A stretch of DNA of 63,076 nucleotides, the filler included, from Reclinomonas americana ATCC 50394 (Eukaryota), in assembly GCA_048213135.1 (NCBI GenBank). It is 40 parts of 40 records of this genome, joined end to end, with 100 filler letters (N's around TTAATTAATTAA, not from the genome) between each part and the next. Parts side by side here need not be neighbours in the genome. Positions count along the whole stretch, not along the records: positions 1,598 to 3,091 come from AFZH01025534.1; positions 3,192 to 4,685 come from AFZH01025535.1; positions 4,786 to 6,278 come from AFZH01025536.1; positions 6,379 to 7,870 come from AFZH01025537.1; positions 7,971 to 9,454 come from AFZH01025538.1; positions 9,555 to 11,044 come from AFZH01025541.1; positions 11,145 to 12,633 come from AFZH01025542.1; positions 12,734 to 14,220 come from AFZH01025543.1; 32 more parts are not named here. One strand, given 5' to 3'. The translations under genes were made by a program, and so were the position numbers. Under the pieces are notes generated by a model. The model was not told where the DNA came from and made no database searches. It worked only from the letters and a program-made list of their open reading frames with translations. This document shows positions 1,609-63,076 of this stretch, in pieces (the stretch's first letter is position 1; the number at the start of each line of letters is the position of its first letter).

Positions 1609-2984
1609 CTTCTCCTGCAACTTGTGCTCCTCATTCAACCTCTCAATCTGCCTCTTCAGCACATCAATGGCCGCCTGTTGCTGATTAACCGACTGCTCCG
1701 TGTCCGTCTTGGCGCTCTCCAGCGTGTCGAGAGCATTGCGCAACGCCTGGAAATATTCAATTCGCCGTCAGCTGAGCGTTGGCACAAACCCCACTGATGA
1801 CACTCGTAGCCTCACCTGCAGCTCGCTCTCTCGCTCGCCAAGGAGCTCGCCCCGCCGATGCGCCTCCTGCTGCGTCTCTTCGAGCACAGACGACAGCGAT
1901 TCGTGAGCCAGACGGCACTCGGTGAGTTCGTGCTGCAGCCGCTGGGCGTCCTGCACAGAGGCGAGTTTATGAGGAACCTGATGCAGTCCTTTCATGAATC
2001 ACAGGGAGAGAGAGACAGTGTGTGAGAGACGCAACAGATCGTGCAGCAGCCAACTGACTGCGCACATCATCGGCCTCCGCCACACTGGCCGTGGCCGACT
2101 CGATGCGGCTCAGCGCATCTTGCAAGTCTCCGCGCACGGACGCCAGCTCCGACTGCAGTTGATCGCGCTCCAGGCGGAGAGAGTGAATCTCCTCGTGCAG
2201 GAACTGTGGACAACACGAACACAACATCAGATAACAGTGATTACAAGGTGTGACGCTTCTATGACACCTTCTGTTCACTGCTTTGTCAGCAATTGTCTTT
2301 TGGGTCTGTGCTCTCAGTTGTTCTTTATCTCGCAATCCACTCTGCAGTATGTGTTGTAGCTCGCGCTCCGTGCATCAATGCTGCTGTTCACGAACTGCCT
2401 GTTTTCGATAACGAGTTGACTTGCTTCATGCCTTTCAGCTCCAAGCTCCAATCACTCTCTTGCCTCTCACAAGGTGGATTGAGGAACAGAAAGAACAAAG
2501 ACCAATGAGAAAAAAAGGCACAAGACACAACACTGCACGAAGTAAAGAGGACGAGAAGAGCGAACTGGAGGAGGATGCCCCTTGCTCTGCCTCCCCACGT
2601 CTCCGCTTCCCTTGTCTTTCCCCTTCAACCTTCCCCTTATTCCCCACTCACCCTCGCATGCATACTCTTCTCCGACTGCAACGACGCCACCGCCTCCTGC
2701 GAGTGATACAGCTTATCACTCATCTCCTCCAACTGCTCCTCCAGGTCCGTCACGCGCGACTGACACGACTGCAGACGCTCGTTCGTCTCGCGATACTTGG
2801 ACTCCTCGGCGTGCAGCAACTCCTCGGCTCGCTGCTGCTTCTCGGACGACACGCGCAAGTCACGCTCACATTGCTGTCCCTTTTGCGCCTCGGCCAGCGC
2901 CGCCGATAGCCGCTCCTCCAGAGTGCGCTTGTCGCGACGGAGGTCCTCGACGGTTGCGCTCATTTCTTGGAACTGTCGGCTCAC
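1609..2984 (-). CDS. Long coiled-coil protein, internal multi-exon fragment
   Basis: E/Q/L/R-rich heptad exons joined by GT-AG introns. The frame is disturbed near 2350-2470 (sequencing error or decay). Confidence 0.7.
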
Positions 2985-3191
2985 CTGCAGTGGCAACCGA
3001 AAGGAGTGAGGAAAGGGGAAGGGAAGGGAAGGGAGAGACGATCCAAGAATGGAGGAGGAAACGACGCAAGGAGGCAACGACGCAAGGAGGANNNNNNNNN
3101 NNNNNNNNNNNNNNNNNNNNNNNNNNNNNNNNNNNTTAATTAATTAANNNNNNNNNNNNNNNNNNNNNNNNNNNNNNNNNNNNNNNNNNNN

Positions 3192-3837
3192 GCTCGATGC
3201 TGGCCTCGGCAGGCGGGCGTGAGCGATCGGCCTCGCCCATGTCGCCGTCGGCACGGGCGCTGGTCAATGAGGGAACGTTGCGTGCGCGAGAGAGGATGGT
3301 GGACGTTGTGCGCGCGCGCGCGCGTTGAGCTCATGTTGTGTCGCAGGCAAACGCCGAGCCCCGAGCGCTCCTCGTCTCCGCGATCGCCGCGGCATCGGCA
3401 TCGCAGTCCCACGCATCATCATCATCACCACCATCATCGGCATCACCACCACCGTCATGAGCAGCATCGTGACAGTGAGTCACCGAGGCGGCGATCGGGA
3501 GGGCGACGGGAGGAAGGCGCGGGGCCGGCGAGTCCGCGGTCGTCGTCGCCCGCTGTGTTGGTGATGGGTGAGCGTGTGTCCGCATCGTCGCCGTCGCGTG
3601 GTTCGATTCGCAGAGAAGATCTGCGAGCGTCGGCCGATGACGCGATGCGAGTGGCGCATGCGCGCTCTCGACCAGCTGCAGCTGCCGGTAGCGCGTCGGT
3701 GAGCGTCCCGTAGCGATCCGCTGCGCGTGTACGACGCTCACTCACTCGCTCCCCTCATTCGCGCAGGTCGACATGACTTCGTTGTTACATCGAGCGAGTC
3801 AGGTGAAAAAGGCAGGCGACACGGGGCAGCGGAGCAG
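3192..3837 (+). CDS. Low-complexity Arg/Ser/His-rich protein fragment
   Basis: ORF with a poly-His tract, then a GTGAG...CTCAC...GCAG intron and a further short exon ending at GTATGC. Confidence 0.45.
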
Positions 3838-4272
3838 GTATGCGTGACTGCTGCGGCCTATTAATAGAGAGTGAGTAGTCGGTACTCATTGCGCGTGATC
3901 ATGTAGTATGGCGGCACCTTGACGATCGCCATCGCGGGGAACGGAAGAGAAGAAATAATTATTTGTCGATCGAGAGAGAGTGCGCTCGGCAGTTTTGTTG
4001 AAACAGTGAAGACTTTTGTGTGTGTGTGTAAAGTCAGCCAGTCAGTCAGTCACATACGTGCACATCACCGGTGATGTATCCTCGAATTGCAGTTTGCGAC
4101 CGACGACCCGCCGACGAGTTGACGTCGAGGCACTGTCGAGTTCGACAAGTGCCTGGCCTATATATGTCCGGTTATGACCGGATGAGTTTTGGTATATTTC
4201 TTCTGCAACCCGCTGAGCCAACACCATCTCGTTTTCTGTTCATCATCATCAACATCATCTGCAACTTACATC

Positions 4273-4685
4273 ATGAGCTCTGCTTCTGCATCTGAGACCA
4301 ACATCATCACCACCACTGCCGTGAAGAAGACCTGGCAGGACTACCGCAGTGAGGCGATTGCCGCGCGCGCTGCGATGACACCGGAGCAGCTGGCCGAGCG
4401 TGAGGCCGCCAAGGAAGCTCGTCGAGCTGCCAAGGAGGCCCGCCGCTCTGTCCGCGGCATCCGTCAGCCACTCACTGCCGAGCAGCTGGCCGACCGTCGT
4501 GCAGCCCAGGAGGCTCGTCGTGCCGCCCGCGGCATTCGTGAGCCATTCTCCGCCGAGCAGCAGGCCGAGCGCCAGGCTGCCAAGGAGGCTCGTCGTGCCG
4601 CCCGCGGCATTCGTGAGCCATTCTCCGCCGAGCAGCAGGCCGAGCGTCAGGCTGCCAAGGAGGCTCGTCGCGCCGCCCGCGCGAA
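4273..4685 (+). CDS. Tandem-repeat charged helical protein (25-aa unit GIREPFSAEQQAERQAAKEARRAAR), 3'-truncated
   Basis: 75-bp repeats at 4456-4680, strong GC3 bias, ATG at 4273. Confidence 0.75.
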
Positions 4686-4785
4686 NNNNNNNNNNNNNNN
4701 NNNNNNNNNNNNNNNNNNNNNNNNNNNNNTTAATTAATTAANNNNNNNNNNNNNNNNNNNNNNNNNNNNNNNNNNNNNNNNNNNN

Positions 4786-5598
4786 GGAGGCGCCCGGAAG
4801 TGTGGCCGGGATCGCGCGGAGAGCCGCATCCACCCTGTCCTGCTCCGCTCCCGTGCGCACACGGACGTCGACCGCGAACTCCGCCGCCGCCGGCACCGTG
4901 TTCGTGGTGCTGCCGGCGCGCACGAGCGTGGGGGTGACACTGGTTCCGGCTTCCGGGTCGCCGAGCAGGGCGATCGCGAGCAGCAGGTGTGCGGCCTCGA
5001 CGGCGGCGTTGATGCCGCGTTCCGGTTCCAGCCCGGCATGGGCCGCACGGCCGGTGACGTGCACGCGGTAGAGCGAGACGCCCTTGCGCGCGATCTTCAC
5101 GGCGCCGCCGTCGGCCGAGGCCTCGAGCACGAACACTGCCGCACAGCCGATCGCCTCCTGCTCGATCAGCTGGCGGGAGCTCGGCGAGCCGAGCTCCTCG
5201 TCGCCCGTGATCAGGATGCTCACACCGGTTCGGTCCGGCAGCGCGGCGACGGCGTGCAGTGCCATCACGACGCCGGTCTTCATGTCGAAGCATCCGGGAC
5301 CACGGAGCACCCCGTCGTCGATGCGGAACGGGAGACTCTGCAGGGAGCCGAGCGGCCAGACCGTGTCGTGATGGCCGAGGACCAGCACCTGAGGTGTGCC
5401 GAACCGCCAGCGCAGGTGGGTGCGACCGTCGATGATGATGCGCTCGGGGGCGGCACCCAGCAGCCTTTCGCCGAGGGCGGCGACGACCTCTGCGCTGCGG
5501 GCGACCGCGTCCAGGTCATCGGACGGTGACTCGCAGGTGACGAGGGTCTCGATGTCGGCGACGATCAGGTCGAGGTCGACGTCCGCCTGCACGGTCAT
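4786..5598 (-). CDS. Bacterial M20 metallopeptidase (carboxypeptidase G2-like), 3'-truncated
   Basis: Motifs GHHDTVW, GPGCFDMKTG, GDEELGS, VLEA and GRAAHAG. Intronless and very GC-rich. Confidence 0.93.
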
Positions 5599-6278
5599 CA
5601 CGACACCTTCGGCGCCGCGCGGACGCCGTGGTGCAGATAGCGCTCGCCGGTGGGCAGGGAGTAGAAGACCACGGCATGCCAGGCCTGTTCGCCCTCACTG
5701 CGCATCACGAATTCGCCCGGTCGGACCGGCACCAGCGGATGCTCCTGAATCGGATCGGGGAGGAGGGCTGCCAGCGGTCCGTTGATGGTGGTGCGCATGC
5801 GCAGGCCGCCTTCCTCGGCGAAGATCTCGGTGCGGACACCCGCCCGGTCGTAGACGCCCTCGAACTCGGAGAAATCGTCGGCGAACGGCTGCGCCGGCGG
5901 CACGAGCCCCGCGGGGAGTCGCACATCGGCGATCTCAGCGAAGATCTCGCCGAAGAGAGCGTCGTACAGGTCACGGGTGTTTCCGCCGTTCGCGAGCAGA
6001 GTGACGGCGACCTCCTCGTCGAGCAGGATGCGCAGGAACGACGACTGCCCGATCGTGTTGCCGTCGTGACCGACGAGCTTGCGTCCATCCCAGTCGAACA
6101 GGATCCAGCCGACGCCCCAGGCGTCACCGAGCGAATACGGGTCGGGCATGTCGACCTCGCGCTGCTGCATGCGCTTCACGCTCGCTTCCGAGAGCACCCT
6201 GGTGCCGTCCGCGGCGAGTCCGCCGGTGAGGTGCATCCGGGCGAACGCGAGCACGTCGGCCGTCGTGGAGTTGATGAG
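5598..6278 (-). CDS. Bacterial serine hydrolase (beta-lactamase/class C family), C-terminal part
   Basis: D(V)LAFARMHL, WGVGW and VGHDGNTIGQ motifs. Its stop overlaps the next start (TGATG), as in an operon. Confidence 0.88.
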   Translation of the reverse strand, partial: LINSTTADVLAFARMHLTGGLAADGTRVLSEASVKRMQQREVDMPDPYSLGDAWGVGWILFDWDGRKLVGHDGNTIGQSSFLRILLDEEVAVTLLANGGNTRDLYDALFGEIFAEIADVRLPAGLVPPAQPFADDFSEFEGVYDRAGVRTEIFAEEGGLRMRTTINGPLAALLPDPIQEHPLVPVRPGEFVMRSEGEQAWHAVVFYSLPTGERYLHHGVRAAPKVS

Positions 6279-6574
6279 NNNNNNNNNNNNNNNNNNNNNN
6301 NNNNNNNNNNNNNNNNNNNNNNTTAATTAATTAANNNNNNNNNNNNNNNNNNNNNNNNNNNNNNNNNNNNNNNNNNNNGGGGGCTCGTATGAACGGGACG
6401 GTGGCTCGTATGCGCGAGACTGGGGCGGCGGCGGAGGCGATGCTGTCCTCTCTCCACGCCCGCCACCTCCCTGCTGCAACTGTGCCTGGCCACGCTCACG
6501 AGCGCTACGACGCTGCGCATGTGTGGACGTGCGTGGTTAGCACATCGAGATGCGACAAGCACACTCACTCGTGA

Positions 6575-7735
6575 TCAGCACTCAACTGTTGGCGCGTCGC
6601 GTGACGGCGGCGACAGTGACGACGCGGTGGCTGCCGATGCCGACGAGGAGCCCTGTGGCGAGCTGCGGCCCCGTCGATAGTCGTGTGCGTCGTCGTCCTC
6701 CTCGCCCTCGGCGGCCAGCTCCGCAGCCGACACACCGTACTCTTGCATCTCGCGCAACAGCTTTTCCCTGGAACGATCGGCCAGCGTGCGTCGCAGCTGC
6801 GGAATCTTTGGCGACTGCAGCAGGCGGTACACTTGCATGCGCTGATCGTGTGTCGACGGCGTGTCGCGACCACTGCGGGGGAGAGAGAGCATTTGAGGTG
6901 AGTGGCGACATGCGCACGACCCCTCCCATCCCCTTAAAAGAGACACGACGCAACTCCGTAATGGCACGGCAGTCGTGGTACGCGGCAACACGATTCAACA
7001 CCTCCGTCGGGCTAATGTCGTAGATGAGACCGAGAATGACGGCGGCCGCCACTCCCGTGCGTCCGTGACCACCCCAGCACGACACGTAGATCTTGTGGCC
7101 GGAGAAGGCCATCTCCACCACTCTGCTCATGGTGTTGAGGAACTCGGCGTCGGGCGCCACGTCGTCGTCGTGAATCGGCAAGTGGATAAAGTCAAAGTCG
7201 GACTGCGACAAGCGACGCTCGTCCATGATGCTGAGGATGTCTTCCACGTACGGTGCGCGCATGGCTCCCTTGTTGATTGAGCGCGACTTGCCCGGTTGCA
7301 ACACGGCTGCGCAGATGCTCAGCAGCGGTTCCACACAGCGAGAACAGAAGCAACACACACGTACCGGGGAAGCGCGAGTCCTCGGGAACCTCCGACTGCA
7401 GGCACACAAACACGCCAATGCCCGTGTCGGCGACCAGCGCCACCAGATCGTCGCGCTTCTCGGCCGGGTAGCTGCCAACGAGAATGTGGTTGCGCACGAG
7501 CCAGTTGGAGCGCTCGATCGGTCCACGCATGTTCTCGTACGCGGGCGTGCCCTTGCGTGGCAACTCGGGCGGGAACTTGAGTCCGCGACGGAAGCGTGCA
7601 CGCAGGTCGGCCATGTTGCGCGGCGGGCGCGGTGGCGACGGTGGCGGCGACGGTTCGCGACGCGGCGCAGAGTCACGCGATTGCTGCGGCGGCGGCTGCA
7701 CAAACTCGCGTGAACCCGACAACTCCTCGTCGTCT
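6575..7735 (-). CDS. Protein tyrosine/dual-specificity phosphatase-like protein, multi-exon
   Basis: SNWLVRNHILVGSYP, HLPIHD (general-acid loop) and the P-loop YVSCWGGHGRTG. Confidence 0.85.
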
Positions 7736-8414: not shown

Positions 8415-8910
8415 ATCATCATCATCGGCATCATATGTATGGTGGGTGGTGTGGGAGGGGAGGAAGGGGTCATATCACTGTCAACGCGTATGTCTTCGCG
8501 GTTCCTCTCTCACCCTTGTCTCTCACTCCTGTGGACACTCGTGCGCGTTTCCCATCGCTCACTTCTCGCTCATTTCCCATCATCGCCATCGGTATCATAT
8601 GTATGGTGGGTGTGGGAGGGGAGGAAGGAGTCATATCACTGTCAACGTGTATGTCTTCGCGTTTCCTCTCTCATCCTTGTCTCTCACTCCTGTGGACACT
8701 CGTGCGCGTTTCCCATCGCTCACTTCTCGCTGATTTCTCGTTCTTCTTCCTTGTGCGGTTCTATCCTTCATCCATCATCATCATCGGCATCATATGTATG
8801 GTGGGTAGTGGGCGGGAGGAAGGGCAAGTCACTGTCAACGCGTATGTATGTCTTCGCTTGTGCACTCGCGGTTCCTCTCTCACCCTTGTCTCTCACTCCT
8901 GTGGACACAT
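8415..8910. repeat. Degenerate tandem repeat, about 3 units of roughly 165-190 bp
   Basis: Recurring CATCATATGTATGGTGGGT...CACTGTCAACG...TCTCACTCCTGTGGACAC. Confidence 0.9.
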
Positions 8911-25396: not shown

Positions 25397-26606
25397 ATCG
25401 GCACTCGCCGACATGCGCGAGATAAATTCGTCGTAGGTGGCCTGAAGGCCCGAGCGCACATCGTACACCGTGTTCGGTGGCGCCTGTTGCTCATCCACGG
25501 AGAAACGTCGTCGTGTGCCGTTGTCTGGCACAGACGAACGACGCACATTCTCGCGCGCCAGCAACTGCTCGTCGAGGGCGATGAGATCGCCTGCCATGCG
25601 CTCCACGTCGGAGACGACCGACGGAGCTGCACTCTGTGCCGAGGCGCGCACACTGCCCTCCATCGAGTACTGCAACACATAGAGTGAGTCGGCACACATA
25701 CGTGGCATCGTGCTTCATGCAGACGCACCCCGTGATCTCTGGTAAGTGTCGCAGTGGCGGTGCCGTCCGACGAGCGCACCGAGCTCAGACTCTCGTCCAC
25801 CACGAGTCGACCATTGCCGCCGCCCGTGTACTCGCCGCCCGTGAGTGATCGCTGGTACAAATCGGCCATTGCCGCATCGCTCATGCGGTCGGGATCCTCG
25901 GTGGTGTACGTTCGGCGTCCGAGTTGACTGCCAGGACCGCGCACGTGGTGACTGAGATCCGGACCCACACGCGTCTGACCACTCAAGTGTGCCTCACGCC
26001 CGGCAGCCAGGCCCGTCGGTGGCCGTGCGCCTCGCGATGCTCCGCCGTTGCCGTTGGTGTCGCTGGGCAGCGATCCCGCAGATCCCGCTACGGAGAACGC
26101 CGAAGTAGACGATCGGAGGCCGTCACCGCCATGCGTAGCTGGAGGCGATTCATAGTGAGCATGACAGACACATATACACCCACACGTTGGCAGAGAGCGC
26201 GCGCAATAACGCAACATGGTGCCGACTGGCGCACATCACCGCCACCACCACCACCACCCCATTGCTGATGCTGACGGAGATACTCGACACCTTCACGGGC
26301 CAGATCCAGCTTGCGCAGCGACGCCGCGGCGCTGGCCGACAGTGGTGCGATGGGTGCCTGCGCTGGAACTCCCACTGACGAGGGTGCGGGCTGATGCATG
26401 CTACTGCTGGCGCTGCCGCTTCCGTGCCCACTGAAAGACACCGAGGTCTGATCACGCGAGGGAGCGTGAATGGTGGACGCCGACGGGAATGTCGACGAGG
26501 CACTGTCCACACTCTGACGCTGCTGCTGCTGTTGTTGTTGTGCGGTCGCCAGTCGCGACATTTCCCCTTGTGAATCCTGCACCGTGTACACCTCCTCGCC
26601 CATCCT
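25397..26606 (-). CDS. Hypothetical Ser/Gly/Gln-rich protein, multi-exon fragment
   Basis: Three ORF segments join in frame through GT-AG introns. Confidence 0.6.
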
Positions 26607-27789: not shown

Positions 27790-28457
27790 TGGCGGCCATG
27801 GTGGTCGAGACGCAGGGTGTTGATGAGCACTATGATGGTGAGTGTGTGAGCAAGAGAGAAACGTTGTCGCATACACTTGTTTGCTCAGCAAAAGAGATTC
27901 TCCTTGGTTTTCTGTGTGCGCAGCGGTCGGCGGCGTGTTCCTGACACCATTAGATCCGAAGCAAGCGCATGCCCTGGATGCGCTCCTGCACAGCCCCTTT
28001 GGCTCGTTCCCTGGCGAGCGGCAAGAGGCGGTTGACAAGACCGGCAGCTTCTCATCATTGTGTTGCGTCTCTTCTCAGCTGTTGCATCATCTATTTTTGC
28101 AAGATCGCGCAGACAACTCACTTGCCGCTTGACTGCTCGCAGATCGGTGCGAGGTTTCGAGTCTGGGTCTGTCGCCGCTGGCCGCACGGCCCACTTATCG
28201 GCGGATAGACCGGTTGGCCCGCGTCGAGGCACTGTGCGGGCAGCGCTTGTTCGAGTTGCAGGCGCGACAGCGCATCAAGGAGTGGCAAGAACGCTGCGTG
28301 CTGCCGTCTACCGACGACGTGGATTACCATCCGCACGCACCGTGGCGTGTCGACGAGGCCGCTGATCGCGAGTCACCCGTGAAGGACGAGCCCGAGAAGG
28401 AGGAGGAGGCGGAGGAGGAAGGTGGTCACCAGAGACCACCGCCTTCTTCTTCTTCGT
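27790..28457 (+). CDS. Hypothetical protein, multi-exon
   Basis: Exons join in frame (...DKTGSFSSLY|RCEVSSL...RVEALCGQRLFELQARQRIKEW). The start position is uncertain. Confidence 0.55.
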
Positions 28458-28899: not shown

Positions 28900-30037
28900 A
28901 TGAGCGACGAGGACGACCGTCAAACACCAGCGTCGCGGCGCTCACCTCCTCCTCCCCCTCCTCCATTAGTCCCCACTCCATCCTCCACACCAGGAGCAGG
29001 AGAGAGAGGAGCAGGCGGAGGAGGTGAAAGAACAGCGCACTTTGCGGCTCCCGACCCCATTGTGCCCTCGATACTCAGCCGCCGCAAACCACCCGTTGCA
29101 CCCTCCTCCACAGCACCATCAACAGCAACAACAGCAGCAGCACATGCGCATCCTCACCACCACCGCGCCGCCTCTCCATTGCTCTCTGTGGAACCCTCGC
29201 TGACCACTCTGCCCATGGTACCGCCACGCCCATCATCATCATCCTCGTCACAACACGAGGCCGTGCAGGAGCACCGCCGCATGCGTCGCGAGCAGGAGCG
29301 CGTGGCCACGCACGAAGCCGAGGTGCGCTCAGAGGCCGCTGCGTGGCTCAAGTCGCTGCCCTCGTCGCCGCTGTCGACAACGCAGACCGGGGTGAGTCCT
29401 GCGGGTATGCGACTGGCACTGGTGGCGCCGAGTCCTCCACCAGCCGTCTTTCGTCTGCCCACGAAGCGCGGTGGCGGGGAGCAGCAGCTGCTGCGGCAGC
29501 AGGAGGAAGGGGGTGATGATGACTATGATGTGCGCGTGTCGCGGTCGGTGGTGGCCTCGTTCAAGGAGCTGCAGGGACCGACGGTGACGGTGAACAGCAT
29601 GTATGGGAGAGCGTTGCCGAGGAAGCTGGTGCCGCGTACACTACCGCCGCTGCCGCTTCCACCAACGCGACCGTCGGTGGCTCGATTGCAACCGATGCCA
29701 CTCGATCCTTATGGTATGACAAAGCAACGAGAGACAAGTGCGTGTTGTTGTTCCGTCCACCACTCATCATCGTTTTGTTGTGTGCAGACCCTGCCGCGGC
29801 CGCCACCGCCACTGCCGATGTAGAGGAGGACGATGTCGATGCAATGGACGACGCGCAGTCGCCTTCGAATCAACGAGTGACGTCGCTGCAGTGGGCCTCG
29901 CCGTCGTCGTCTTCGCACCGCTCTGGCGTGCAGCAAATGTCGGCGCCGTCGCTGCCGCCATCGATTGTGCTGTCGCGCACGCGGACCCCGGTGCGCCGTG
30001 TGCAAGAAGTCAATATGCCATTCGAGAGTCTGGAGGA
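28900..30037 (+). CDS. Pro/Ser-rich hypothetical protein, 5' part (2 exons)
   Basis: ATG at 28900, a long ORF, and a GTATGA...GCAG intron near 29715-29787. Confidence 0.6.
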
Positions 30038-31716: not shown

Positions 31717-31838
31717 AAGCGATGTGTGGCGGGATTGACAGTGACCAGAGTAGTGGGCTGCGGAAAGGCGGAGACCGAAAGCAGCAGTGTGCAGAGAACG
31801 AGTGCGACGGAGACGACGAGGGCTGTGAGCGCGCGCAT
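31717..31838 (-). CDS. Secreted protein N-terminus (signal peptide), copy A
   Basis: MRALTALVVSVALVLCTLLLSVSA-FPQPTTLVTVNPATHR, conserved in copy B. Confidence 0.65.
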
Positions 31839-32630
31839 TTCTTCGGAAACAGGTCGGCGCAGCGACGCGTACGTACCGGTGTCCTGTCGGCGATTGTACT
31901 GTAGCTCGAGCTCTTGGGTTCGTCTTTGCAATTGTGAATGGCGAATGCGCGGCATGCACAATTGCACAAGCGAATTTCCAACGCCAAGTCGCTTTGTTTG
32001 CCTTTCATTGCAGCCGAGTCGGTTCGATCCCCGGGCCCACCTTCGACCTCCCAGACAGCGTAACAAGTGGCGGACTTGCAAAGCCACATACCGACACTGC
32101 GCGGGGCTGAATAATTTGGTGGCTGGGCATCCTCAAACTTGTTTCGAACGACGAGCTTGCACGCACAGTTCACTGCGATCGCGGACACAAAGGCCAAAAC
32201 GGTGGTCTTTTGCACGTACATGTACATGTGGTGCATGATGCAGCTCGCCCCGCCCCTCCACGCCGCGCTCGACGATTCACGGCCCTCCAAAGAATATTTT
32301 TTGCTGTTGTTTATTCTCTCCAGCAGCAGGCGCGCGGTTTTTTGTGGTGTGTCCGGTTTTGTCGATACTTTTCCTTTTTAAATCCTCACCGCTTCTCACT
32401 CCGCCCCCCCGCTGCGCACGACCATCACTCCACTCACTCCCATCTCTCTCTCCACGTTCATCGCGCCTGCGATGCGCACGGCCTCGGCGAACGCGATCTC
32501 AAATCTGGCCGAAAACGAAGTCCATGGTCAGTTTCGACAATCGATCAATCGCTGTTTTCGTTGTGTTGAGAGAGCAAAGTGCACCAGCCCCAACCTTTGC
32601 ACCGCCCCCTGTTTGTTACCTTCGTTAGAT

Positions 32631-33192
32631 ATGAGCACAACAGTCACTGGCCAGCGCCGCCGCTCCTTCTCCGACTTGCTGCTGGAGGACTGGAACTTGC
32701 TGGCGCTGACCAGTGCCGACGAGTGTGGTTCCGGACAACGTGGGGTGCGTTTGCGCAGCGGTTTGCGCCTGGCGAGCGACCTCGACTGCGACGAGTGCAG
32801 CAGCACTGAGGATGCAGTGGAGGAGGACGAGCTGACACTGGAAGATGACGAGGAGGATGGAGGCGAGGCCATGGATGCGGAAAGTGATCACACACCTCAG
32901 GTCAGTTTCGCCTCTGTTGTTGTTGTCGGCGATTGTACATGAGTGACACCACCACCACTCACGCACATGCACACACACACAGCACCGATTACTGTCACGC
33001 TTGTTGATGCGCGACGACAGCGGTCAAGGAGGCGAAACGTCGCTCATTTCACCCCTCTCTGCATCATCGTCCTCGTCGCGCTTTGCTGCACCACCACCAC
33101 CACCACCACCAGCGTTTGCCTCGCCCACCTCTGCTGGCGCTGTCGTATGCATGCGTGCGCCCGGCACTCCCTCGGCCGCGGCTGCTGTGGCC
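32631..33192 (+). CDS. Hypothetical acidic protein 5' part, copy A
   Basis: MSTTVTGQRRRSFSDLLLEDW..., with coding sequence near-identical in copy B while the intron and upstream DNA carry indels. Confidence 0.65.
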
Positions 33193-33317
33193 NNNNNNNN
33201 NNNNNNNNNNNNNNNNNNNNNNNNNNNNNNNNNNNNTTAATTAATTAANNNNNNNNNNNNNNNNNNNNNNNNNNNNNNNNNNNNNNNNNNNNGCTCATTG
33301 TACCGTTGACTTTCCAG

Positions 33318-34176
33318 GGGTTGGTTGCCGAGTTGTCCAACGTGCATGTGTTGCGTCGCGCTCCTGAATCCCTTTTTGTGCGTGCTGCCTACTCACTTTG
33401 CTTGCTGTGCAGCCTCCGTCACTTGTGGTCATTCGTACCGTACGGTGCTGCGCTGTGGACGGTCGACATGTCACTTGTGTCCAAGCGTGTGCTGCACTGG
33501 CTCAGCGACAAGATGCACGACGTGCGGCAACAACACCGGCGGTGGTGGAACGACGTGGAAGGCAACATCAGAGCCGAAGTGGTGAGAGTGTTACACCCAC
33601 CCACATCTGTTTTTGTCTCCATCACTCACTTCCTGTGCGCAGCGTCACATGGCCAGCGAGCAAGCACGCGAGTACTTCCTCAACCGCATGCGCGGCGCCG
33701 AAGTGGGTGCACAAGCCCCCACTTTCGATCTGCTGTTCAACAATCCCGACATTGTCGCCGCCGTGCGAGCCAAGGTTCTCTCTGAGGCGCCGCCGCAGCC
33801 GCATCTTGCGGCCACCATCATGTCGATGCGCGACATTATGCTGCTGGTGCGCAAACTCGCCCGCCGCACAGTCATCGAACCGTCAGCTGTGGTGCAAATG
33901 ATGATCTACTTCAACACGCTGGAGGGTGAGCCTACGCTGCCGCCGGCCGAGCACAGTTGGTATGTGGGCGAGCAGTTGGATAACGACGACGACGATGACG
34001 ACGATGTGCCGCACGACAAGTCGTCGGCACCCAAGCGGCTGCGACGCGGTCCGCGCGGCCATCCGCGATTGTCGTCGACGATGATGTCGTTTGACGAAGC
34101 GCATGTCCCGCAACGGGCGGCCTCTCGTGCCGAGACGCGAGCGCAAATGCACTCGCGGCAGGGTTCGCGATCGTAA
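33318..34176 (+). CDS. Hypothetical protein 3' end, allele B of 19089-19956
   Basis: Near-identical sequence and exon structure. Confidence 0.7.
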
Positions 34177-34236
34177 ACAACGATCGCGCTGTGTAATTAG
34201 ATTGCAATGTTTTTTGTGAGGGTAAAATTTTTGATT

Positions 34237-34729
34237 TCATTGTTCTGGTGGTGGTGGTGGTGGAGGAGGTGGCGGTGGTGGGGATGAAGACTGAGCGGGA
34301 GGCGGGGGTGGAGGAGGCGGTGACTGTGACCGCGGTGGTGGTGGTGGTGGTGGTGGATCAGCGTCTGCACTGGAGCCAGGTGTGTCAGGCTGCGGGAAAG
34401 GAGGTGAGCAGCAGCGATACGGTGCGACAGACACGGCGGCGCACACGCAACGTCGGTAAAAAACGGGTGCTGCAGGGCGGCATTGGCGGTGAGGCGTGTT
34501 CTCTGGTCGTATTGTAGGAGGCCACGGATGAGGTCGAGGAACACGGTGTCTTCGTCAAACAATAACCGCTGGCGAGACAAGCGGTGAGGAGACGGAGGAG
34601 CGAAGGACGTGACAAGAACATCGCGCGAATACCTCCAGCGGGTACATGTTCTCCACAAAATTCACCGACGACTCGTTCTCGGCCAGCTCCGGCCAGTCGA
34701 GGCGGCCATCTCGTTTAAAGTACTTGCGA
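34237..34729 (-). CDS. LAMMER/CLK-family kinase 3' end, allele B
   Basis: Near-identical to 20017-20509. Confidence 0.8.
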
Positions 34730-34885
34730 CTGGAACGAAAGATAAGAGGCAAAGTTTTCCACGCAACGNNNNNNNNNNNNNNNNNNNNNNNNNNNNNNNN
34801 NNNNNNNNNNNNTTAATTAATTAANNNNNNNNNNNNNNNNNNNNNNNNNNNNNNNNNNNNNNNNNNNNAACCGTGCACGCTGCAG

Positions 34886-36332
34886 AAATACGAGTCCACG
34901 CGCAAGAAAATGGGCGACGACCGACAGCAGATGCGCTGGGACTTCCTGCCGCAGCGCCTCTTTGGTCGCACCAACTACATGGCCAAGCGCATTCTCGACA
35001 TGATTGCGATTGTCGAGGATGTGGAGTCGTTCCGCAAGATCCTCGGCCCCAAGCTCAAGGCCGTGACGGGCGAGGCCGTGGCCATTGATCGTGTGATTCG
35101 TCGTGTCGACCGGCTGGTCGATCCCGTGTGCGACATTGGCTTCAACGTCTTCTCTCCCAACACCTACGTGATGTGGAGCGATGTGTACGAGCAGTTCAAG
35201 CAGAACGTCGAGGAGATTCAGGGTGCGTTTGTGTGTATAAGATATGTCTTTCTCTGCCTGGCGTGTTGACACTGGCCTCATGCAGGAATCACGATGAAGT
35301 TCATTGACGACTCGTTCCGCGAGCTGCGTTCGGCCAAGGGTGCGTTCGAGCTGCAGCAGAACTTCAAGGAGTTCAAGACACGACCGGCTATCGAGTCGCT
35401 GATGGAGAACAAGTATCCGGAGATCTTTGACCAGTTCAGCGGCGAGATTGAGGGCGTGCTCAAGATCTTCCTGGCACACAAGGACAACCCACCTCGCTCC
35501 AAGAACCAGCCACCGGTCGCCGGTGCCATTTACTGGGCCCGCTCGCTCTTCCACCGCGTCAGCAAGACGTGGCTTCTGTTCCAGAAGACGTCGGAAAGCA
35601 TCTTCGACTCGGTCGAGGGCCAGAAGATCATCAAGAACTTCAACGACTTGGCGCGCAAGATGGCCGAGTTTGAGAGCGAGGTGAGTTTTTTTCTTTTTTT
35701 GGCCCTTTCCTTTACCTCACCTGGCGGCGACTCACCCACTGTTGATTGTCGTTTGTGTTTGACAGCGGTACCACCAGTGGGAGTCGACTGTCGACTCGCT
35801 GACGGTCACCAACCTGAAGCAGCCGATCCTGGAGCTCGTCGACGGCAAGTATCACGTGCGCTTCGACCCGTCGCTCAACCTCATCATGCAAGAGGCCAAG
35901 TACCTGGATCGTCTGGGCTTCACCATCCCGGATTCGGCACTCAACGTGGCGCTGCAGGAGGACAAGTACCACGAGCTGGTGGAGGGCCTGAAGGAGATGA
36001 TTCATTCGTACGAGCAGGCGGTCGCGTCGCTGCGACCAGCCGAGGCGCGTGTGCTGAAGAATCACGTCAATGCGCTGCAGTACACGCTGGCGCCGGGTCT
36101 CAGCTCACTCAACTGGAACTCACTCGGCATTCGCGACTACAACGAGCGATGCCACCGCGAGATTCTCGAGTTCCAGACGCTGGCCTCCAAGGTCGACAAG
36201 TTCGCCTCCGCCATTCTCGGTGTCATCACCTCGATCGGCCACTCGTCGCTGTTCCAGGTGCCGTCGACTCTGCAGCCGGGCAAGATCGAGTTGCACGAGC
36301 TGGATCACCTGCTCGACGAGCACCGGCAAGAG
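34886..36332 (+). CDS. DNAH10: Axonemal dynein heavy chain, DNAH10 (inner arm I1 alpha)-like N-terminal region, 3 exons
   Basis: RWDF..RLFGRTNYMA, GPKLKAVTG, FIDDSFRELRSA, KNQPPVAGAIYWARSLF, EAKYLDRLGF.IP..ALNVALQEDKY and LNWNSLGI motifs. Confidence 0.88.
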
Positions 36333-49596: not shown

Positions 49597-50395
49597 ATCT
49601 AACCAAGGTAACAGGGGCAACAGGGGGGGCGGGGCAAAGGTTGGGGCTGGTGCACTTTGCTCTCTCAACACAACGAAAACAGCGATTGATCGATTGTGTG
49701 AAACTGACCATGGACTTCGTTTTCGGCCAGATTTGAGATCGCGTTCGCCGAGGCCGTGCGCATCGCAGGCGCGATGAACGTGGGGAGAGAGATGGGAGTG
49801 AGTGGAGCGATGGTCGTGCGCAGTGGGGAGCGGAGTGAGAAGCGGTGAGGATTTAAAGGAGAATATCGACAAAACCGGACACACCATAAAAAACCGCGCG
49901 CCTGCTGCTGGAGAGAATAAACAACAGCATAAAATATTCTTTGGAGGGCTGTGAATCGTCGAGCGCGGCGTGGAGGGGCGGGGCGAGCTGCATCATGCAC
50001 CACATGTAGTCGTGCAAAAGACCACCGTTTTGGCCTTTGTGTCCGCGATCGCGGTGAACTGTGCGTGCAAGCTCGTCGTTCGAAACAAGTTTGAAGATGC
50101 CCAGCCACCGAATTATTCAGCCCTGCACAGTGTCGGTATGTGGCTTTGCAAGTCCGCCACTTGTTACGCTGTCTGGGAGGTCGAATTCGATCGCGAAGGT
50201 GGGGATCGAACCGACTCGGCAGCAGTGAAAGGCAAGCAAAGCGACTTGGCGTTGGAAATTCGCTTGTGCAATTCTACTGTGCACGCCGCGCTTTCGCCAT
50301 TCACAATTGCAAAGACGAACCCAAGAGCTCGAGCGAGTTACAATCACCGACATGTCGACAGGACACCTGTACGTCGCCGACCTGTTTCCGAGGAA

Positions 50396-50517
50396 ATGCG
50401 CGCACTCACAGCCCTCGTCGTCTCCGTCGCACTCGCTCTCTGCACACTGCTGCTTTCGGTCTCCGCCTTCCCGCAGCCCACCACTCTGGTCACTGTCAAT
50501 CCCGCCACACATCGCTT
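50396..50517 (+). CDS. Copy B of the secreted protein N-terminus at 31717-31838
   Basis: MRALTALVVSVALALCTLLLSVSAFPQPTTLVTVNPATHR. Confidence 0.65.
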
Positions 50518-52390: not shown

Positions 52391-53524
52391 TCACCGCACA
52401 GCATGCTGGTTGAACTCGGAAAAGTACAACACTTCGTTGCCCGCGTCGTACACCACACTGTAGATGAAGTCCGGAGCCGGTGTCGCACTACTGCTCGTGA
52501 CCAGCGTCGTTGTGTACCCAGTCGACGACACTCGTCGTAGTGCGTTGTTTGATGACTGTGAAAACAGAAGTGAGTTCACAGAGACGCACATGGCTAACAG
52601 TTTACAGCCAAGTCGAGATAAAGAGAATTCGTGTTTTTTTTCAAAAGGAATGACATAATAGAACAACAGAATCGCAGCAAGGTGGCAAGAAGGAACGAGA
52701 AGTGTGCATCGTGGTAACTAGCGTACACATGACATAGAAACAAGGCGAACGAATCGCCCGGTGTCTCACGCACATCAGCAACAAACAGCGTGCTCGACTC
52801 CAGATCGATGGCGAGGCCTCGTGGACTGCACACGCGCACGAAACATTATCGACGACATGTCAGACACACAACACGACCTCAATCTAACGACAGCCTCAGA
52901 TCACACAACCACACGCACCCGTTGAATCGTGCCGTAGTCGCCGCACCATCTACCAATGCTCCAGTTGCTCCACACACACCAGCAAACGTCGACACCATGC
53001 CCGACGACACGTCGACAAACCGAATGCAATTATTGCTGCGCAAGAGCAATGACACGCATTAAGGAAGAAGAGAGAGAGGGGGGGAGAGAGAGAGAGATTC
53101 AGCGAGAAGTGATCGCCGGCTCATCGGCGCAAGACGCAGCAAAGGCACGCAACCCTGCTTCCACAAGGTACAAATCGCCTTTAGAGTCGCCAACAATGCC
53201 CTGCAGTGCAGACGCATCACGAAATCAAGTGTCAGTAGAAATATCATTCGCGGTCGCTCATAAGCACAAGCAATCACGCAGGAAGCAGAGACGTAACTCG
53301 CGGATCATTGAACAACGCACTCGCTCGTGCCCCATCGGTTGTTCCAGGAGTGCCCAGCGTACCAGCATACGTCGTCACCGACGACGCTGTCGTGAAATCA
53401 CTGCTCGATCGCGCCAACTCGAAATAGTTGCTGCTCGTCGCACCAGAGTTGTTCGTGATCGACCCATTCACTGTAGCCGTGTACGTAGACACTGCAGTCG
53501 CCGCGCTGCTCGTCGCAAGGGCAG
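52391..53524 (-). CDS. NHL-repeat protein fragment, multi-exon
   Basis: TYAGTLGTPGTTDGARASALFNDPR|GI, NNCIRFVD..GMVSTFAG..DGAATTARFN and PRGLAID..TLFVAD motifs. Confidence 0.85.
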
Positions 53525-57138: not shown

Positions 57139-58320
57139 ATGGAGACTGATGACGGAGGTAGTGGCAGTGGAAGTCCACCTGCTGGTGACGACGAGGTCTC
57201 CGCTGCCACGGATGACTCGATCAGCAGCAGTGGGTGCAGCAGTGGTGCGGGAACGCCGCGGGCGGATCGGCGACCGGTGCCGTCGACGGAGTATGTGGTG
57301 ATCAAGGTGGTGCAGCGGTCGCGCATGTCGTCGCATCAGCCGTTTCGGGAGCTGGAGGCGCTGCAGCAGGTGCGAGGAGAAGAAGGGAGATGTAAGGCAA
57401 TTAATGAGATGTGCGCCTCTTCCTGCTTCTCATCGCGAAGAGCGAGAGGAGAGAGAGAGGAGACAGAGGAGCGAGAGGGGAGAGCAGAACGAGAGGAGAC
57501 TGAGCAGCGAGAGAGGAGAGAACACAACGAGAGCAGCCATCACAGCAATCCTCCTGTGACCTTTCCCCTTCCCCTTCTCCTTATCTGCTCCCTCTCCTCC
57601 CCTTTCCCCTCCTGCCCCACAGACCCGCCACCGCAACGTCAACCGCCTGGTGGAATTCATCGAGACACCCACACACGTGTGCTTTGTGCTCGAGTAGTTG
57701 CGGCGACTGCCCTCTCCCCCGTTTTCCTGTCCGCCTTGTCACTCACCACACCCCGCAGTCTCGCTGGCGGCGACCTTGTCGGTCGCATCGCCCGCGGTAC
57801 CCTGACAGAGCCCGCGGCGGCACGATTCGCACGGCATATCTTGCAGGGCCTCTCGCACTGCCATGCGCGTGGAATGTTGCGTCCGGTTGACATGATGCGC
57901 CCTTTATCTTTTCTCTCACACTCGCTATTTTCCACGAGCAGTCTGCACCGTGACCTGAAGGTGAGATGCGTGGCCGCTCTTGCTCACCTTGCGTGTATCT
58001 CACCCTCTTTGACGCAGCCCGACAATGTCTTGCTCACCGAGGCACCCTGCGATGAACTGCTGGAGCAAATGAAGCACGATCCGAGTGTGGTGGATCCAGC
58101 CGCGGCACAGGTATGGCGACCACTCCCCTGCTGTAACGATCGCGGCACTTACTTTATGCCCTCAGCTGGCCGACTTTGGCTTTGCCTTTCTCAGTGCGTT
58201 ATTGTTGCTTCTGTCGCTCAACCCCTCTTCCTTCTATTGACTCCCTTTGTACTTTGTACAGTCTCTCCGCTCTCCGAATCGGATGCACGCCTGGTGGGGA
58301 CCATCCACTTTCTTGCGCCG
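57139..58320 (+). CDS. CAMK-like Ser/Thr kinase fragment with many short introns
   Basis: Spliced product VVIK..FRELEALQQ|TRHRNV..CFVLEY|LAGGDL..HARGI|LHRDLK|PDNVLL..|LADFGFA..|..VGTIHFLAP. The 5' boundary is uncertain. Confidence 0.9.
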
Positions 58321-59832: not shown

Positions 59833-59935
<103 letters not shown>

Positions 59936-60376
59936 CTCTTCTTNNNNNNNNNNNNNNNNNNNNNNNNNNNNNNNNNNNNNNNNNNNNTTAATTAATTAAN
60001 NNNNNNNNNNNNNNNNNNNNNNNNNNNNNNNNNNNNNNNNNNNTGTTCTCTCTCCTTCATGTCATGCACTTGCATTGTTCATGCCCCCGTGCGCCCACTC
60101 TCTCTTTCTTCTCGTCTCGCTTTGCTCTTCGTTGTTTCGATTGAGGGATGCTTGCTCGTCACTGTGCCGCGTTCCACGCTTGCTATCCTCTTCCTCCCCA
60201 CTCCGATTTGTGCCTACCCTCTTTCTCTTCTTCTTTTTGCACCCGCGTAATTGCAGCACGCTACTCCTCTCTTATTCTCCTCATTCCATCCCGTTCGCCG
60301 ATGTCTGTCTCCTTGCTTCACAACCCACTCTCTCATCTGATTGTTTTTCTCACAGTCCTTTGTTCCTGTTGCGCAG

Positions 60377-60656
60377 TGTTGGACGGTTGGGGCCGGGGGA
60401 ACACACTGGATGGGTATACTCTGTCGTCGTTACTCTCGATGGCCAGCACATCGTGAGTGGGAGTGAGGATAAAACGATCCGTGTGTGGTTCACGCCGCGT
60501 GGGCTGGCGCGGCAGGAGCTCGCTGCCGCACGACTGGCCGTGCTGGCCGTCAATGAGCTGCTTGCCGAAGATGACTGTGACTGGATCCTCGTCGACGTCG
60601 TGCTGCGGTGTTTCGTGTTGGAGGATGCAGAGATGATTGAACGCCGTGCGCCTTGA
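60377..60656 (+). CDS. Single WD40 repeat plus the same conserved tail as the 41-42 kb cassettes
   Basis: HTGWVYSVVVTLDGQHIVSGSEDKTIRVWFTPRGLARQEL..VLRCFVLEDA..*, after a polypyrimidine tract and GCAG. Confidence 0.8.
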
Positions 60657-61610
60657 TGGTGCTGGACGGAGTGAGCTCAATGAATGTACGAAGACCGATC
60701 TGTCTGTGTGCAACTCTCTCATGTTGACAGCCACACCGCCTCACACGTGCTTCTCCACTGCCTTGCCAAGTACAGGCAGCCGGTAAGCAAATACAATTGC
60801 AACACAGTGCTGTGGGAGTGCAAGAAGAGAATGCCGGGTGCGAGGTGTGTGTGGATGTGTGTGGGTGGTTGAGATGAGACCACGGAATGAACTGACACGC
60901 GTTCTGCTCGGCGTTGGGCGAGTCGTCGCTCTCTCACCCACCCACCCCTCATGTCGCCCTGTCATTCAAACACGGCGTGGATGCCAGCCTGTCACTATTG
61001 GAGCAGCGGCAAGTGGCATCATCGCCCACCTCCCCTTCTCACGCGGGCACCGCGTGTCCATGGAGAGCGCGTCAGGCATCGATTCAGATGGCCACTCTTC
61101 TCGTTACACACGCCACGGGGAGAGAGAGTGCACTTGCCCTGCGCACTCGTTTCCCGCGCGTGCGTGTGTACCCTGACAACTGGTTTGTTGCACCCACTCA
61201 CGAACTGCGCTGCTTCTTCCCTCTCTTTCTGAATCGTGTGTTGTTGGCCTCCACCCGACTCACGTGCGTGGCTCAGAGGGAGTTGATGCTCGTGGCGTGT
61301 CGAGTTGAACAGGCTCGGCGTGCATGCACGCACCCTCAATTCCGCAACATCTCGCTCACATTGCTGGTTGAGAATGGAGCACCACGACGGGGACGCAGAG
61401 AGACACAGGGCACAGAGACACAAACAGCACCGCGAGGCGCACGCACACACGGGCGAGAGAGAGTTGATTAGATGTTGATGTTCCGTCGGATGAATCAGAG
61501 TTGGTGCTTCNNNNNNNNNNNNNNNNNNNNNNNNNNNNNNNNNNNNNNNNNNNNTTAATTAATTAANNNNNNNNNNNNNNNNNNNNNNNNNNNNNNNNNN
61601 NNNNNNNNNN

Positions 61611-63076
61611 GGGAGCCGACAGATCGCCAGTCAGCAGCTTGCGAATCAGTCGTGCGGCGTTGACCTGCGCCGGAGTGACATTGGGCAGGCGCACCCACTC
61701 GCCACCAACTGCAAATACACACGAGAGTGAGCACTGGGGGAGACGCAGAGAATCTAGTGAAGAAAAACGCGCAACTGTTGCCCGACGCCCAGTACGTCAG
61801 CTGGTTGGTGCCAAACCTCGGCTGCTCCGACGGCAGCTCCGTCGTCGGCAGCGGGAACGGCTTCAGTACATCTGCACGCGACGGGGGAAAAGAGTGTCAG
61901 AGGCACGCCACAATCTCACTTCCGCATTCGTGCTCGATTGCTCACCAGGATCCTCTGGCTTGTTGTCCTCGGGCGACGCCACATAGTTGCTCTCACAAAT
62001 GTAGTAGACACCGTGCGTGCCGAGGAACTTGCCAAAGAAGCGCACCGCCGTCAATCGCTGCTGCCGCGCCAGCTGCTGCATTGCCGCATGCAACGCATAC
62101 ACCTCCGCCTGCGGCAGCCCGAAACCGCACTGCTCCAAGTACCGCAGATCCTCCGGCAGATCTTGCACCGAGCAGTTGTCGACGCCGTGCTGTGCGCGCG
62201 CATAGACACACACAAGTCAGCATAGGAGGCCTGAGATAGAGAGATGAGAGTGAGAGTGGAAGCTTGCCTTGCGACTCTCCGCAAAGGCCGCAATCGCCTG
62301 TGTCGCGCGTTCTCGATCCAGCAAGGCCTCGCGTGAGGGAACCTGCACACACCCACACAACAAGCGAGTCAGCTCAACTGCTGGCCAGTAGAAGTGAGGG
62401 AGCAAGGACAGGGGAAAGTGAGAGAAAGACAAGCATGAGAAGGACAGGCGAAGAGAAGGAGAGCAGGGACAAGGGAGAATGCGAGGGTGAGTGAGCATGA
62501 AAGACAAGCAAGAGTGCAGGGATGATGAGAGCATGAGAAACAAGCAACAGAGCGACAGGTGAAGACAGAGAAGGAGAGGAAACAGAAGAAAGGGCGAGGG
62601 AGCAAGGACTGGGGAGAGAGAGAGACCATGAGAGACACGCACGAAACGACAGGTGAATAGAGAAACGGAGACAGAAGAAAGGCGAGGGCGCAAGGAAAGG
62701 AGAGAGGAGAGAGGCGAGAGAGTGCAAGAGAGAACAACATGTGAAGAGAAGAGAGACAGGTGCAAGCGAGTGTCTCTCCCCCCCTCCCTCCTCTCTCTCT
62801 ATCTCCCCTCCCTCCCTCACTCCCTCCTCCCTCCCTCCCTCCCTCCCTCCCTCCCTTCTCTCTCTCCTTTCTCACCGACTGATCAGCGACCACATCTCCC
62901 GTCTTTGTGTCAAACTTGAGCCGCTGTCGTCCCAATCGCAACATCACATCCTCCAGAGTCTCTCCCGGTCCACCCACACACTTTGCGTCTTGCAACACCG
63001 CCTCAGTCAACTCACACAGACGATCGTACACAGAGACCCCATCAGAGCCCGCTTGAAGCAGGTACGATTGAGCAAA
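61611..63076 (-). CDS. Radial spoke head protein RSPH4/6-like, multi-exon fragment
   Basis: EQCGFGL..E.Y.L..AM..L, VRFFGKFLG..GVYYICE, GTNQLTYW and WVRLPNVTPAQVNAARLIRKLLTG motifs. Confidence 0.9.

Follow-up and report, generated by a model that had tools for sequence, protein, structure and literature searches.

Evidence for a recurrent GTTGCGT-type donor class in introns of Reclinomonas americana and its weak predicted pairing with standard U1

The DNA analysed here is a 63,076-base stretch of the draft assembly of Reclinomonas americana ATCC 50394 (GCA_048213135.1), referred to below as the window, and its subject is a group of introns whose 5' splice sites (donors) read GTTGCG. It had been proposed from the sequence that GTTGCG is a real and recurrent second donor class, and this part of the original prediction is borne out by four junctions that homology fixes and by the enrichment of the heptamer GTTGCGT near intron 3' modules. 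The existence of a major second donor class, in a small sample, is well supported by these signals. As judged from the DNA alone, its members show themselves to be genuine GT-AG spliceosomal introns. The tentative explanation is that the class is a genuine second set of donors recognised by a reader different from the standard U1 5' end, a variant small nuclear RNA (snRNA) being the likeliest. The shifted reading by standard U1 that had been suggested for these donors was not upheld by duplex modelling.

The window is not a single locus: it strings together small, unplaced contigs from a draft assembly. It joins 40 separate contigs, sorted by falling length from 1497 down to 1466 bp, through linkers of 44 N, TTAATTAATTAA and a further 44 N; the N runs accordingly form 39 such pairs (1498-1597, 3092-3191 and so on, spaced about 1590 bases apart). 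Linkers of this kind are, according to a literature search, in use for bacterial draft genomes. Because the chain is artificial, genes that lie side by side in it are not genomic neighbours. The span from 2030 to 61775, over which the donors had been noticed, crosses unrelated genes and thus amounts to a small random sample of the genome of about 59 kb. The contigs have a median GC of 58%, and third codon positions are about 78% GC (GC3).

Every donor on the original list reads GTTGCG at its coordinate and strand, and the two variants named there are correct (GTTGCA at 38310 and GTTACG at 53297). The last exon base (-1) is T, A or C at all listed donors except 53153. The set of 13 GTTGCG loci and three variants was graded by the evidence for each junction. 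In grade A, the junction is fixed by homology (57697, 57876, 61775 and 6954). Grade B has partial homology or a two-copy comparison (43758, 38310, 20231/34451, 19121/33350, 53153 and 53297), grade C has frame and signals only (26215, 28062, 47956 and 38126), and grade D is ambiguous or lies at the end of a contig (2035 and 23696). The members and one further candidate are as follows; here and below, a caret marks the splice junction and hyphens enclose a residue whose codon is split.

57697..57758, plus strand: GTTGCG intron, 62 nt, phase 2, kinase gene of contig 37; junction VLE-Y-LAGGDL; CTCAC 14 nt before CAG
57876..57941, plus strand: GTTGCG intron, 66 nt, phase 2, same kinase gene of contig 37; junction HARG-I-LHRDLK; CTCAC 24 nt before CAG
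61709..61775, minus strand: GTTGCG intron, 67 nt, phase 1, radial-spoke-head gene of contig 40 (Pfam Radial_spoke)
6873..6954, minus strand: GTTGCG intron, 82 nt, phase 2, dual-specificity-phosphatase-like gene of contig 5; homologue P0001
19121..19192, plus strand: GTTGCG intron, 72 nt, contig 13; the contig 22 copy, 33350-33412, has 63 nt
20170..20231, minus strand: GTTGCG intron, 62 nt, contig 13; contig 22 copy at 34390-34451
53036..53153, minus strand: GTTGCG intron, 118 nt, phase 2, junction LVEA-G-NNCIRFV; the longest, the sole member with G at -1, and with no CTCAC
53201..53297, minus strand: GTTACG variant intron, 97 nt, phase 0, junction FNDPR^GIVGDSKGDLYLVEA
38310..38379, plus strand: GTTGCA variant intron, 70 nt, phase 0, COG6 gene of contig 25; CTCAC 24 nt before CAG
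43758..43764, plus strand: GTTGCGT donor with its acceptor beyond the contig; the CDC48_N match halts at profile position 63 of 85, exactly at the donor
26139..26215, minus strand: predicted GTTGCG intron, 77 nt, phase 1, contig 17; frame restored; CTCAC 18 nt before CAG; signals only
28062..28142, plus strand: predicted GTTGCG intron, 81 nt, phase 1, contig 18; in-frame joining; CTCAC 23 nt before CAG
47886..47956, minus strand: predicted GTTGCG intron, 71 nt, phase 1, contig 31; frame restored; CTCAC doubled; flanking exons of low complexity
38126..38246, plus strand: candidate GTTACG intron, 121 nt, phase 0, COG6 gene of contig 25; chosen by the gene parse, with weak codon support and no branch motif
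1951..2035, minus strand: candidate GTTGCG intron, 85 nt, ambiguous, with a rival donor T^GTGCGCAG at 2065
23696..23702, plus strand: GTTGCGT at a contig end, candidate only; the contig finishes 18 nt past the donor
20693..20756, minus strand: further candidate GTTGCGT intron, 64 nt, absent from the original list; 216 open codons upstream (score 15.4), T at -1, ends in TTCAG

When every frame-compatible donor was listed, many junctions could not be settled by frame alone. The contig 37 kinase gene contains two of the junctions fixed by homology. The exon downstream of the 57697 intron, which is the middle exon, matches positions 82-117 of the Pkinase profile, and the 57876 junction together with the next, ordinary junction (K^PDNVLL) rebuilds the invariant kinase catalytic loop exactly. 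At 61775, Radial_spoke profile positions 217-238 lie on residues 7-28 of the 30 in the upstream exon and positions 243-273 on residues 2-32 of the downstream exon, and the match across the junction is gap-free once the split codon is counted. At 6954, the sole homologue found, P0001 (35% identity, a weak match), aligns to YHDCR just before the donor, and its residues after YHDCR align without gaps to the spliced continuation, as judged by eye. This donor was also the top-scoring frame-compatible one among those giving introns of at least 40 nt. The claim that conserved motifs set several junctions holds for the two kinase motifs (VLE-Y-LAGG and RGI^LHRD) and in part for the COG6 gene, where the downstream side is matched: the COG6_N profile (positions 43-113) begins at residue 3 of the exon after 38310.

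Two donors can be compared between copies, since contigs 13 and 22 represent the same region in two copies with 96.5% identity (19064-20546 and 33293-34768). The 19121 intron holds 5 of the 6 indels between the copies (sizes 3, 2, 3, 1 and 4) and 5 of their 43 mismatches, while its first 12 nt are unchanged. This concentration of indels indicates that the intron body is unconstrained and the donor conserved. All four predicted introns of the pair, which cover 319 of 1483 nt, hold 16 of the 43 mismatches. At 20231/34451 both copies retain the donor and CTCAC, with T at -1 in one copy and C in the other, and a kinase domain finishes (profile position 263 of 263) two residues ahead of the donor.

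The remaining loci differ in their evidence. Reading through 43758 leads to a stop six codons further on. The junctions at 53153 and 53297 lie in a repeat which we take to be NHL-like; Pfam found nothing there. The 53153 intron carries a TCCTTAAT word 24 nt before CAG that resembles a U12-type branch site, a single case. At 28062 the downstream exon is strongly coding and the codon score of the upstream exon is weak, and at 26215 a gene parse that had no donor model chose 26234 instead. The donor at 2035 is ambiguous, because the donor at 2065 shares its phase and acceptor and has a codon score of 23 against 20. Other GTTGCGT sites outside the original list, at 214 (minus strand), 42948 (plus) and 48702 (plus), are followed by pyrimidine-rich sequence and have no coding support.

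The motif is also enriched where donors are expected. GTTGCGT occurs 20 times in the window compared with 10.99 +/- 3.05 in dinucleotide shuffles, none of 100 of which reached 20, and 12 of these 20 occurrences are sites on the original list. A strict 3' module, composed of branch, pyrimidine and YAG elements, is present 147 times. With no gene model involved, 11 of the 20 GTTGCGT sites sit 20-130 nt upstream of such a module (2.2 expected), as do 17 of the 56 GTTGCG sites (6.1 expected), and GTTGCGT ranks first among all GT-heptamers in this position.

A gene parser that knew donors only as GT gave a similar result. Its codon model was seeded on 668 homology-supported codons; a self-trained codon model had drifted into low-complexity frames and was replaced. 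GTTGCG was the commonest donor hexamer of this parse (7 of 215 introns on all strands and 6 of 87 on the better strands) and was absent from the 12 commonest hexamers of 101 decoy-strand introns. Unsupervised clustering of the parsed donors into two classes returned a first class of (C/G)AG^GTG(A/C)G, comprising 55% of donors. The second class (45%) combines a -1 base other than G with +3 T (0.54), +4 G (0.46) and +5 C (0.63). Of 56 parsed introns, 14 carry T at +3. The GTTGCG class may account for very roughly one in ten to one in three introns of the 59-kb sample.

Ordinary introns of the window were used as comparators, three of which are given here.

57370..57622, plus strand: ordinary intron, CAG^GTGCGA, kinase gene of contig 37
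57961..58017, plus strand: ordinary intron, AAG^GTGAGA, kinase gene of contig 37, junction LHRDLK^PDN
35681..35765, plus strand: ordinary intron, GAG^GTGAGT, dynein heavy chain fragment, with this as the sole plausible frame-compatible donor

The last of these lies at 812-897 within its contig, where the other GT (872-909) implies an intron of 37 nt, and its flanking codon scores are 71 and 88. Both classes share genes: the contig 37 kinase gene has three ordinary and two GTTGCG introns. The ordinary set (n = 22) and part of the GTT set were curated by hand with the motifs known. Ambiguous cases (24904/24907, 29396, 29636/29714 and 31062/31089) were left out of the counts, and each duplicated contig pair was counted once. 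The statement that ordinary donors mostly follow G was confirmed, with G at -1 in 21 of the 22 curated donors (9.1 expected) and in 27 of the 42 donors without T at +3 in the automatic parse.

The consensus of the class (n = 16) is W^GTTGCGT(C/G), with GTTACG and GTTGCA as rare variants. Within the intron, G occupies +4 in 14 of 16 members, C occupies +5 in all 16, G occupies +6 in 15 and T occupies +7 in 12. The exon side is different from that of ordinary donors. The -1 base is T in 10 members, A in 5, G in 1 and C in none, and A is present at -2 in 4 of 16 compared with 10 of 22 ordinary donors. The suggested link to a -1 base other than G therefore stands insofar as the class lacks the ordinary -1 G. 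The absence of G alone is near background, because G before GTTGCG is rare throughout the window (4 of 56 sites), and the real signal is a preference for A or T. A or T is found at -1 in 15 of 16 members compared with 6.2 expected from the interrupted codon positions (P = 2.4e-6). In the whole window G precedes any GTT in 16% of cases and GTG in 23.5%.

At the other end, all 14 introns with a visible 3' end start with GT and end with CAG, and the pyrimidine fraction of intron positions -20 to -4 (the 17 nt before CAG) is 0.59-0.82. CTCAC lies 14-27 nt ahead of CAG in 9 of 11 GTTGCG introns and fits the YTNAY branch-site pattern of major (U2-type) introns. Within the last 48 to 6 nt it occurs in these 9 of 11 and in 6 of 22 ordinary introns (p = 0.0078), and with the three variants included the count is 10 of 14 (p = 0.016). 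CTCAC is the commonest branch-like motif of introns throughout, with C and not a purine before the presumed branch A (e.g., 57740-57758 and 61709-61735), and the window as a whole has 302 CTCAC and 14 CTAAC. As it is the reverse complement of the common donor GTGAG, strand calls are confused by it. A literature search on CTCAC branch points returned nothing useful. Class introns are 62-118 nt long and ordinary ones 55-686 nt, a difference that is not significant (p = 0.26). Introns in phases 0, 1 and 2 number 6, 4 and 6 in the class and 15, 6 and 1 in the ordinary set (phase 0 against the rest, p = 0.10).

Two other origins of the shared motif were considered and rejected. An introner-like family is not indicated, since no similarity runs along the intron bodies: in an alignment of 13 introns, columns 1-5 alone are invariant and mean column identity is 34%. 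The introns share only their ends and so are not a young repeat family. A hairpin at the donor was also dismissed, as a CGCAAC-like word lies within 200 nt at 2 of 13 sites, which is the chance level.

Pairing with U1 was modelled by nearest-neighbour duplex energies, using the standard U1 5' end as printed in the excerpted text of Tan et al. 2016 (PMC4856993), from which the organism's own U1 may differ. The 16 members of the GTT class averaged -1.06 kcal/mol, the 22 ordinary donors -8.12 and 1500 random GT sites -2.79. The class thus pairs more weakly than random GT sites (p = 0.0017), and 20 of 22 ordinary donors take the normal register.

About eight conserved intronic positions, the lack of an exon G, the invariant C at +5 and a U1 affinity below that of random sites together make a different base-pairing guide the most likely explanation, and this remains our tentative preference. 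The guide might be a variant U1-type snRNA with a 5' end complementary to GUUGCGU. It might also be a variant U1 changed opposite +4/+5, which would read G^GUGCGU normally and W^GUUGCGU shifted by one base. A U1 whose base opposite +4/+5 pairs with C would reconcile the likeness to GTGCG, noted earlier, with the present data. A variant U1 or U6 had been offered as an alternative in the original prediction, too. In both cases, cleavage would still be placed at GU by the catalytic core. The class would also let introns follow an A or a T, bases seldom found at third codon positions in this GC3-rich genome.

Several points weigh against this preference or against the class itself, beside the possible difference of the organism's own U1. 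The sample of introns is small, and curation with knowledge of the motifs inflates contrasts such as that of -1 G (21/22 against 1/16). The bare hexamer GTTGCG shows no excess in the window, with 56 occurrences where Markov models of order 1-3 give 49-59. A looser 3' module (background 20.8%) yields an enrichment that is modest, 18 of 55 GTTGCG sites against 11.4 (p = 0.026). The association of T at +3 with a -1 base other than G is strong in the two-class parse (0/27 after G against 14/29 after other bases, p = 1.7e-5), which is self-reinforcing, and falls to 3/32 against 15/55 (p = 0.057) in the parse without a donor model; the controls gave 4/21 against 17/80 on decoy strands (p = 1) and 15.3% against 19.8% at all GT sites. 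The 3' ends of both classes are alike in kind, which argues against wholly separate machinery. Some ordinary donors also pair weakly (19302 at -1.7 and 25779 at -4.0), and weak U1 pairing may therefore simply be tolerated. An Rfam scan of the window for snRNA genes gave no match at gathering thresholds, and at E <= 1 only low-complexity chance matches.

The reading proposed originally, in which standard U1 pairs with W^GUUGCGU one base out of register (G+1 standing in for the -1 G) or with a U bulged while cleavage stays at GU, is possible but doubtful. The form of the motif speaks for it, since G^GTGCGT and ^GTTGCGT have the common frame G(G/T)TGCGT, T at +7 in 12 of 16 members mirrors T at +6 in 11 of 22 ordinary donors, and GTTACG has an ordinary counterpart in GTACG (7364). 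Such registers are also established for human 5' splice sites, according to the excerpted texts of PMC4856993 and PMC9311317. However, modelling found no stable pairing in any register: the class mean is the near-zero value given above, and G+1 lies opposite C9 of U1 in 1 of 16 members. The invariant +5 C is a mismatch with standard U1. GTTGAG, which would be the shifted form of the commonest ordinary donor GTGAG, is not used and carries no donor signal, with a 3' module downstream of 4 of 27 sites (5.6 expected). Loss of the -1 G fits a shift rather than a bulge, as a bulge predicts that -1 G and -2 A are kept, which they are not; a shift predicts A at -1, but T is twice as frequent there as A (10/16 and 5/16). 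In addition, N^GTGCGT in the normal register and N^GTTGCGT in the shifted register form the same number of pairs, so the extra T is left unexplained by a shift.

A stronger form of the preferred explanation, and an unlikely one, posits two parallel 5' splice-site systems. Ordinary U1 would serve (C/G)AG^GTG(A/C)G, and a dedicated guide RNA complementary to GUUGCGU would serve W^GTTGCGT donors that have evolved away from U1 and prefer CTCAC. This would constitute a third intron class besides U2 and U12.

It is distinctly unlikely that the class has no special reader, so that weak U1 pairing is tolerated and the motif arises from contacts with U6, U5 or Prp8, from a protein such as U1C, from mutational or compositional bias, or from a shared ancient insertional origin. 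The weak ordinary donors, the lack of over-representation of the bare hexamer and the general depletion of G before GTT are all in line with it. However, seven to eight near-invariant positions are hard to obtain without a sequence-specific reader, and the rejected hairpin leaves no partner for the motif. A young repeat family is at odds with 13 introns that are alike at their ends only.

It is quite improbable that a diverged minor-spliceosome-like system removes the GTTGCGT/CTCAC introns with snRNAs that have co-evolved with transformed signals. The extended intronic 5' motif without an exon consensus, the preferred branch motif (CTCAC in 9/11 against 6/22) and the trend away from phase 0 (6/16 against 15/22) would suit such a system, and an abundant transformed minor system is described for Physarum in the excerpted text of 10.1101/2020.10.12.336362. 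The motifs themselves do not agree with it: the class has neither [G/A]TATCCTT as its 5' motif nor TTCCTT[G/A]AC as its branch site, and RTATCCTT occurs twice in the window where 0.78 is expected, a chance level. Moreover, a pyrimidine tract is present, CTCAC is shared with those 6 of 22 ordinary introns, and in a GC3-rich genome the preference for A or T at -1 is enough by itself to produce the phase trend.

Finally, mis-called introns, with true donors elsewhere or frame breaks caused by assembly errors, are very improbable: the draft assembly of 1.5-kb contigs, the equally good rival donor of 2035 and the signals-only evidence at 26215 and 28062 leave some room for them, but four junctions are set to the residue by homology with no other GT there, the motif is enriched upstream of 3' modules, and the two-copy indel pattern marks the 19121 intron as unconstrained.

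The question is of general importance. Few features of eukaryotic gene expression are as conserved as the U1 5' end and the GTRAGT-like donor. If the preferred explanation is true, a large share of introns has a sharp donor that is not complementary to U1, and the uncoupling of cleavage-site choice from U1 pairing becomes testable, as does the rise of new snRNA-intron pairs outside the U2/U12 dichotomy. Gene finders trained on a single donor model will mis-annotate such genomes. For example, the present GT-only parse skipped the exon between 57758 and 57876.

Other contents of the window were noted in passing. Genes of cilia or flagella (dynein heavy chain and radial spoke head) are part of the sample. 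A second pair of copies is formed by contigs 21 and 32, with 93.9% identity in opposite orientation (31717-33192 and 49045-50517). Each of the two contig pairs could represent the alleles of a heterozygous diploid or a recent duplication, and their differences cluster within predicted introns. Contig 4 (4786-6278) has the highest GC (70%) and long intron-free minus-strand open reading frames with M20 peptidase and beta-lactamase-family domains, and could derive from a contaminating bacterium or from gene transfer. Several contigs contain WD40-repeat genes of a single type, ...VSGS.D.TVRVWS... (11369-12632 on the plus strand, 41349-42593 on the minus strand and 60438-60644 on the plus strand); the repeats of contig 8 are spread over three frames that overlap, suggestive of erroneous frameshifts or of introns still unresolved. 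Contig termini are often (CT)n, (GA)n or (CA)n microsatellites (e.g., 14201-14220, 17361-17380 and 22233-22252), which probably broke the assembly. A Pfam scan of 260 open reading frames of at least 70 amino acids, up to position 30035, gave few matches. No tRNAs were found in the window. The radial-spoke exon had no match among longer proteins, the dynein exon found no relative in metagenomes, and a search of the atlas yielded nothing beyond generic kinases. Neither the phosphatase search nor the radial-spoke search turned up a protein derived from a transcript of this organism.

Among known systems, atypical human 5' splice sites come first, which Roca and Krainer in 2009 reportedly showed to be read by U1 in a shifted register. 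The shifted register and a +2/+3 bulge are established for rare human 5' splice sites in the excerpted texts of Tan et al. 2016 (PMC4856993) and a review (PMC9311317). Like those sites, the present class looks like an ordinary donor with an extra U after GU, would be cleaved at GU and, as in the shifted form, dispenses with the -1 G. In contrast, the human sites are rare and keep several U1 pairs, whereas the class here is common and has essentially no predicted duplex with standard U1, and it further differs in its invariant +5 C mismatch, in favouring T over A at -1 and in having no GTTGAG members.

The exon and intron halves of ordinary 5' splice sites compensate for each other, and donors without a -1 G have a stronger intronic part. 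The class resembles such compensation in that it lacks the -1 G and its intronic part is more conserved. However, compensation predicts N^GTGAGT or N^GTAAGT, and a motif with T at +3 and C at +5 was seen. Variant U1 snRNAs have been reported in human cells, according to the excerpted texts of PMC3561869 and PMC10870369. They offer a route by which a U1-type particle could read a second set of donors; here, the putative system is known from its donors alone. No report of a GTTGCG or GUUGCG donor class appeared among the full-text literature matches listed, and a description under another name is possible.

The minor, U12-type system is defined by the 5' signal [G/A]TATCCTT and the branch signal TTCCTT[G/A]AC in the excerpted text of Larue, Elias and Roy (bioRxiv 10.1101/2020.10.12.336362), who describe the abundant transformed minor introns of Physarum, and minor introns are stated to avoid phase 0 in that of PMC10639083. 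The branch signal of U12-type introns lies within about 45 nt of the 3' splice site. Like U12-type introns, the GTTGCG introns form a parallel class in the same genes. They have a long intronic 5' motif without an exon consensus, favour one branch motif and show a trend away from phase 0. In contrast to them, they carry GTTGCGT and CTCAC instead of RTATCCTT and TTCCTTRAC, have a pyrimidine tract and share their branch motif with ordinary introns. Their frequency is also far above the ~0.5% typical of minor introns. As an analogy, therefore, the U12-type system is the closest to the GTTGCG class in logic, with its defining motifs absent here.

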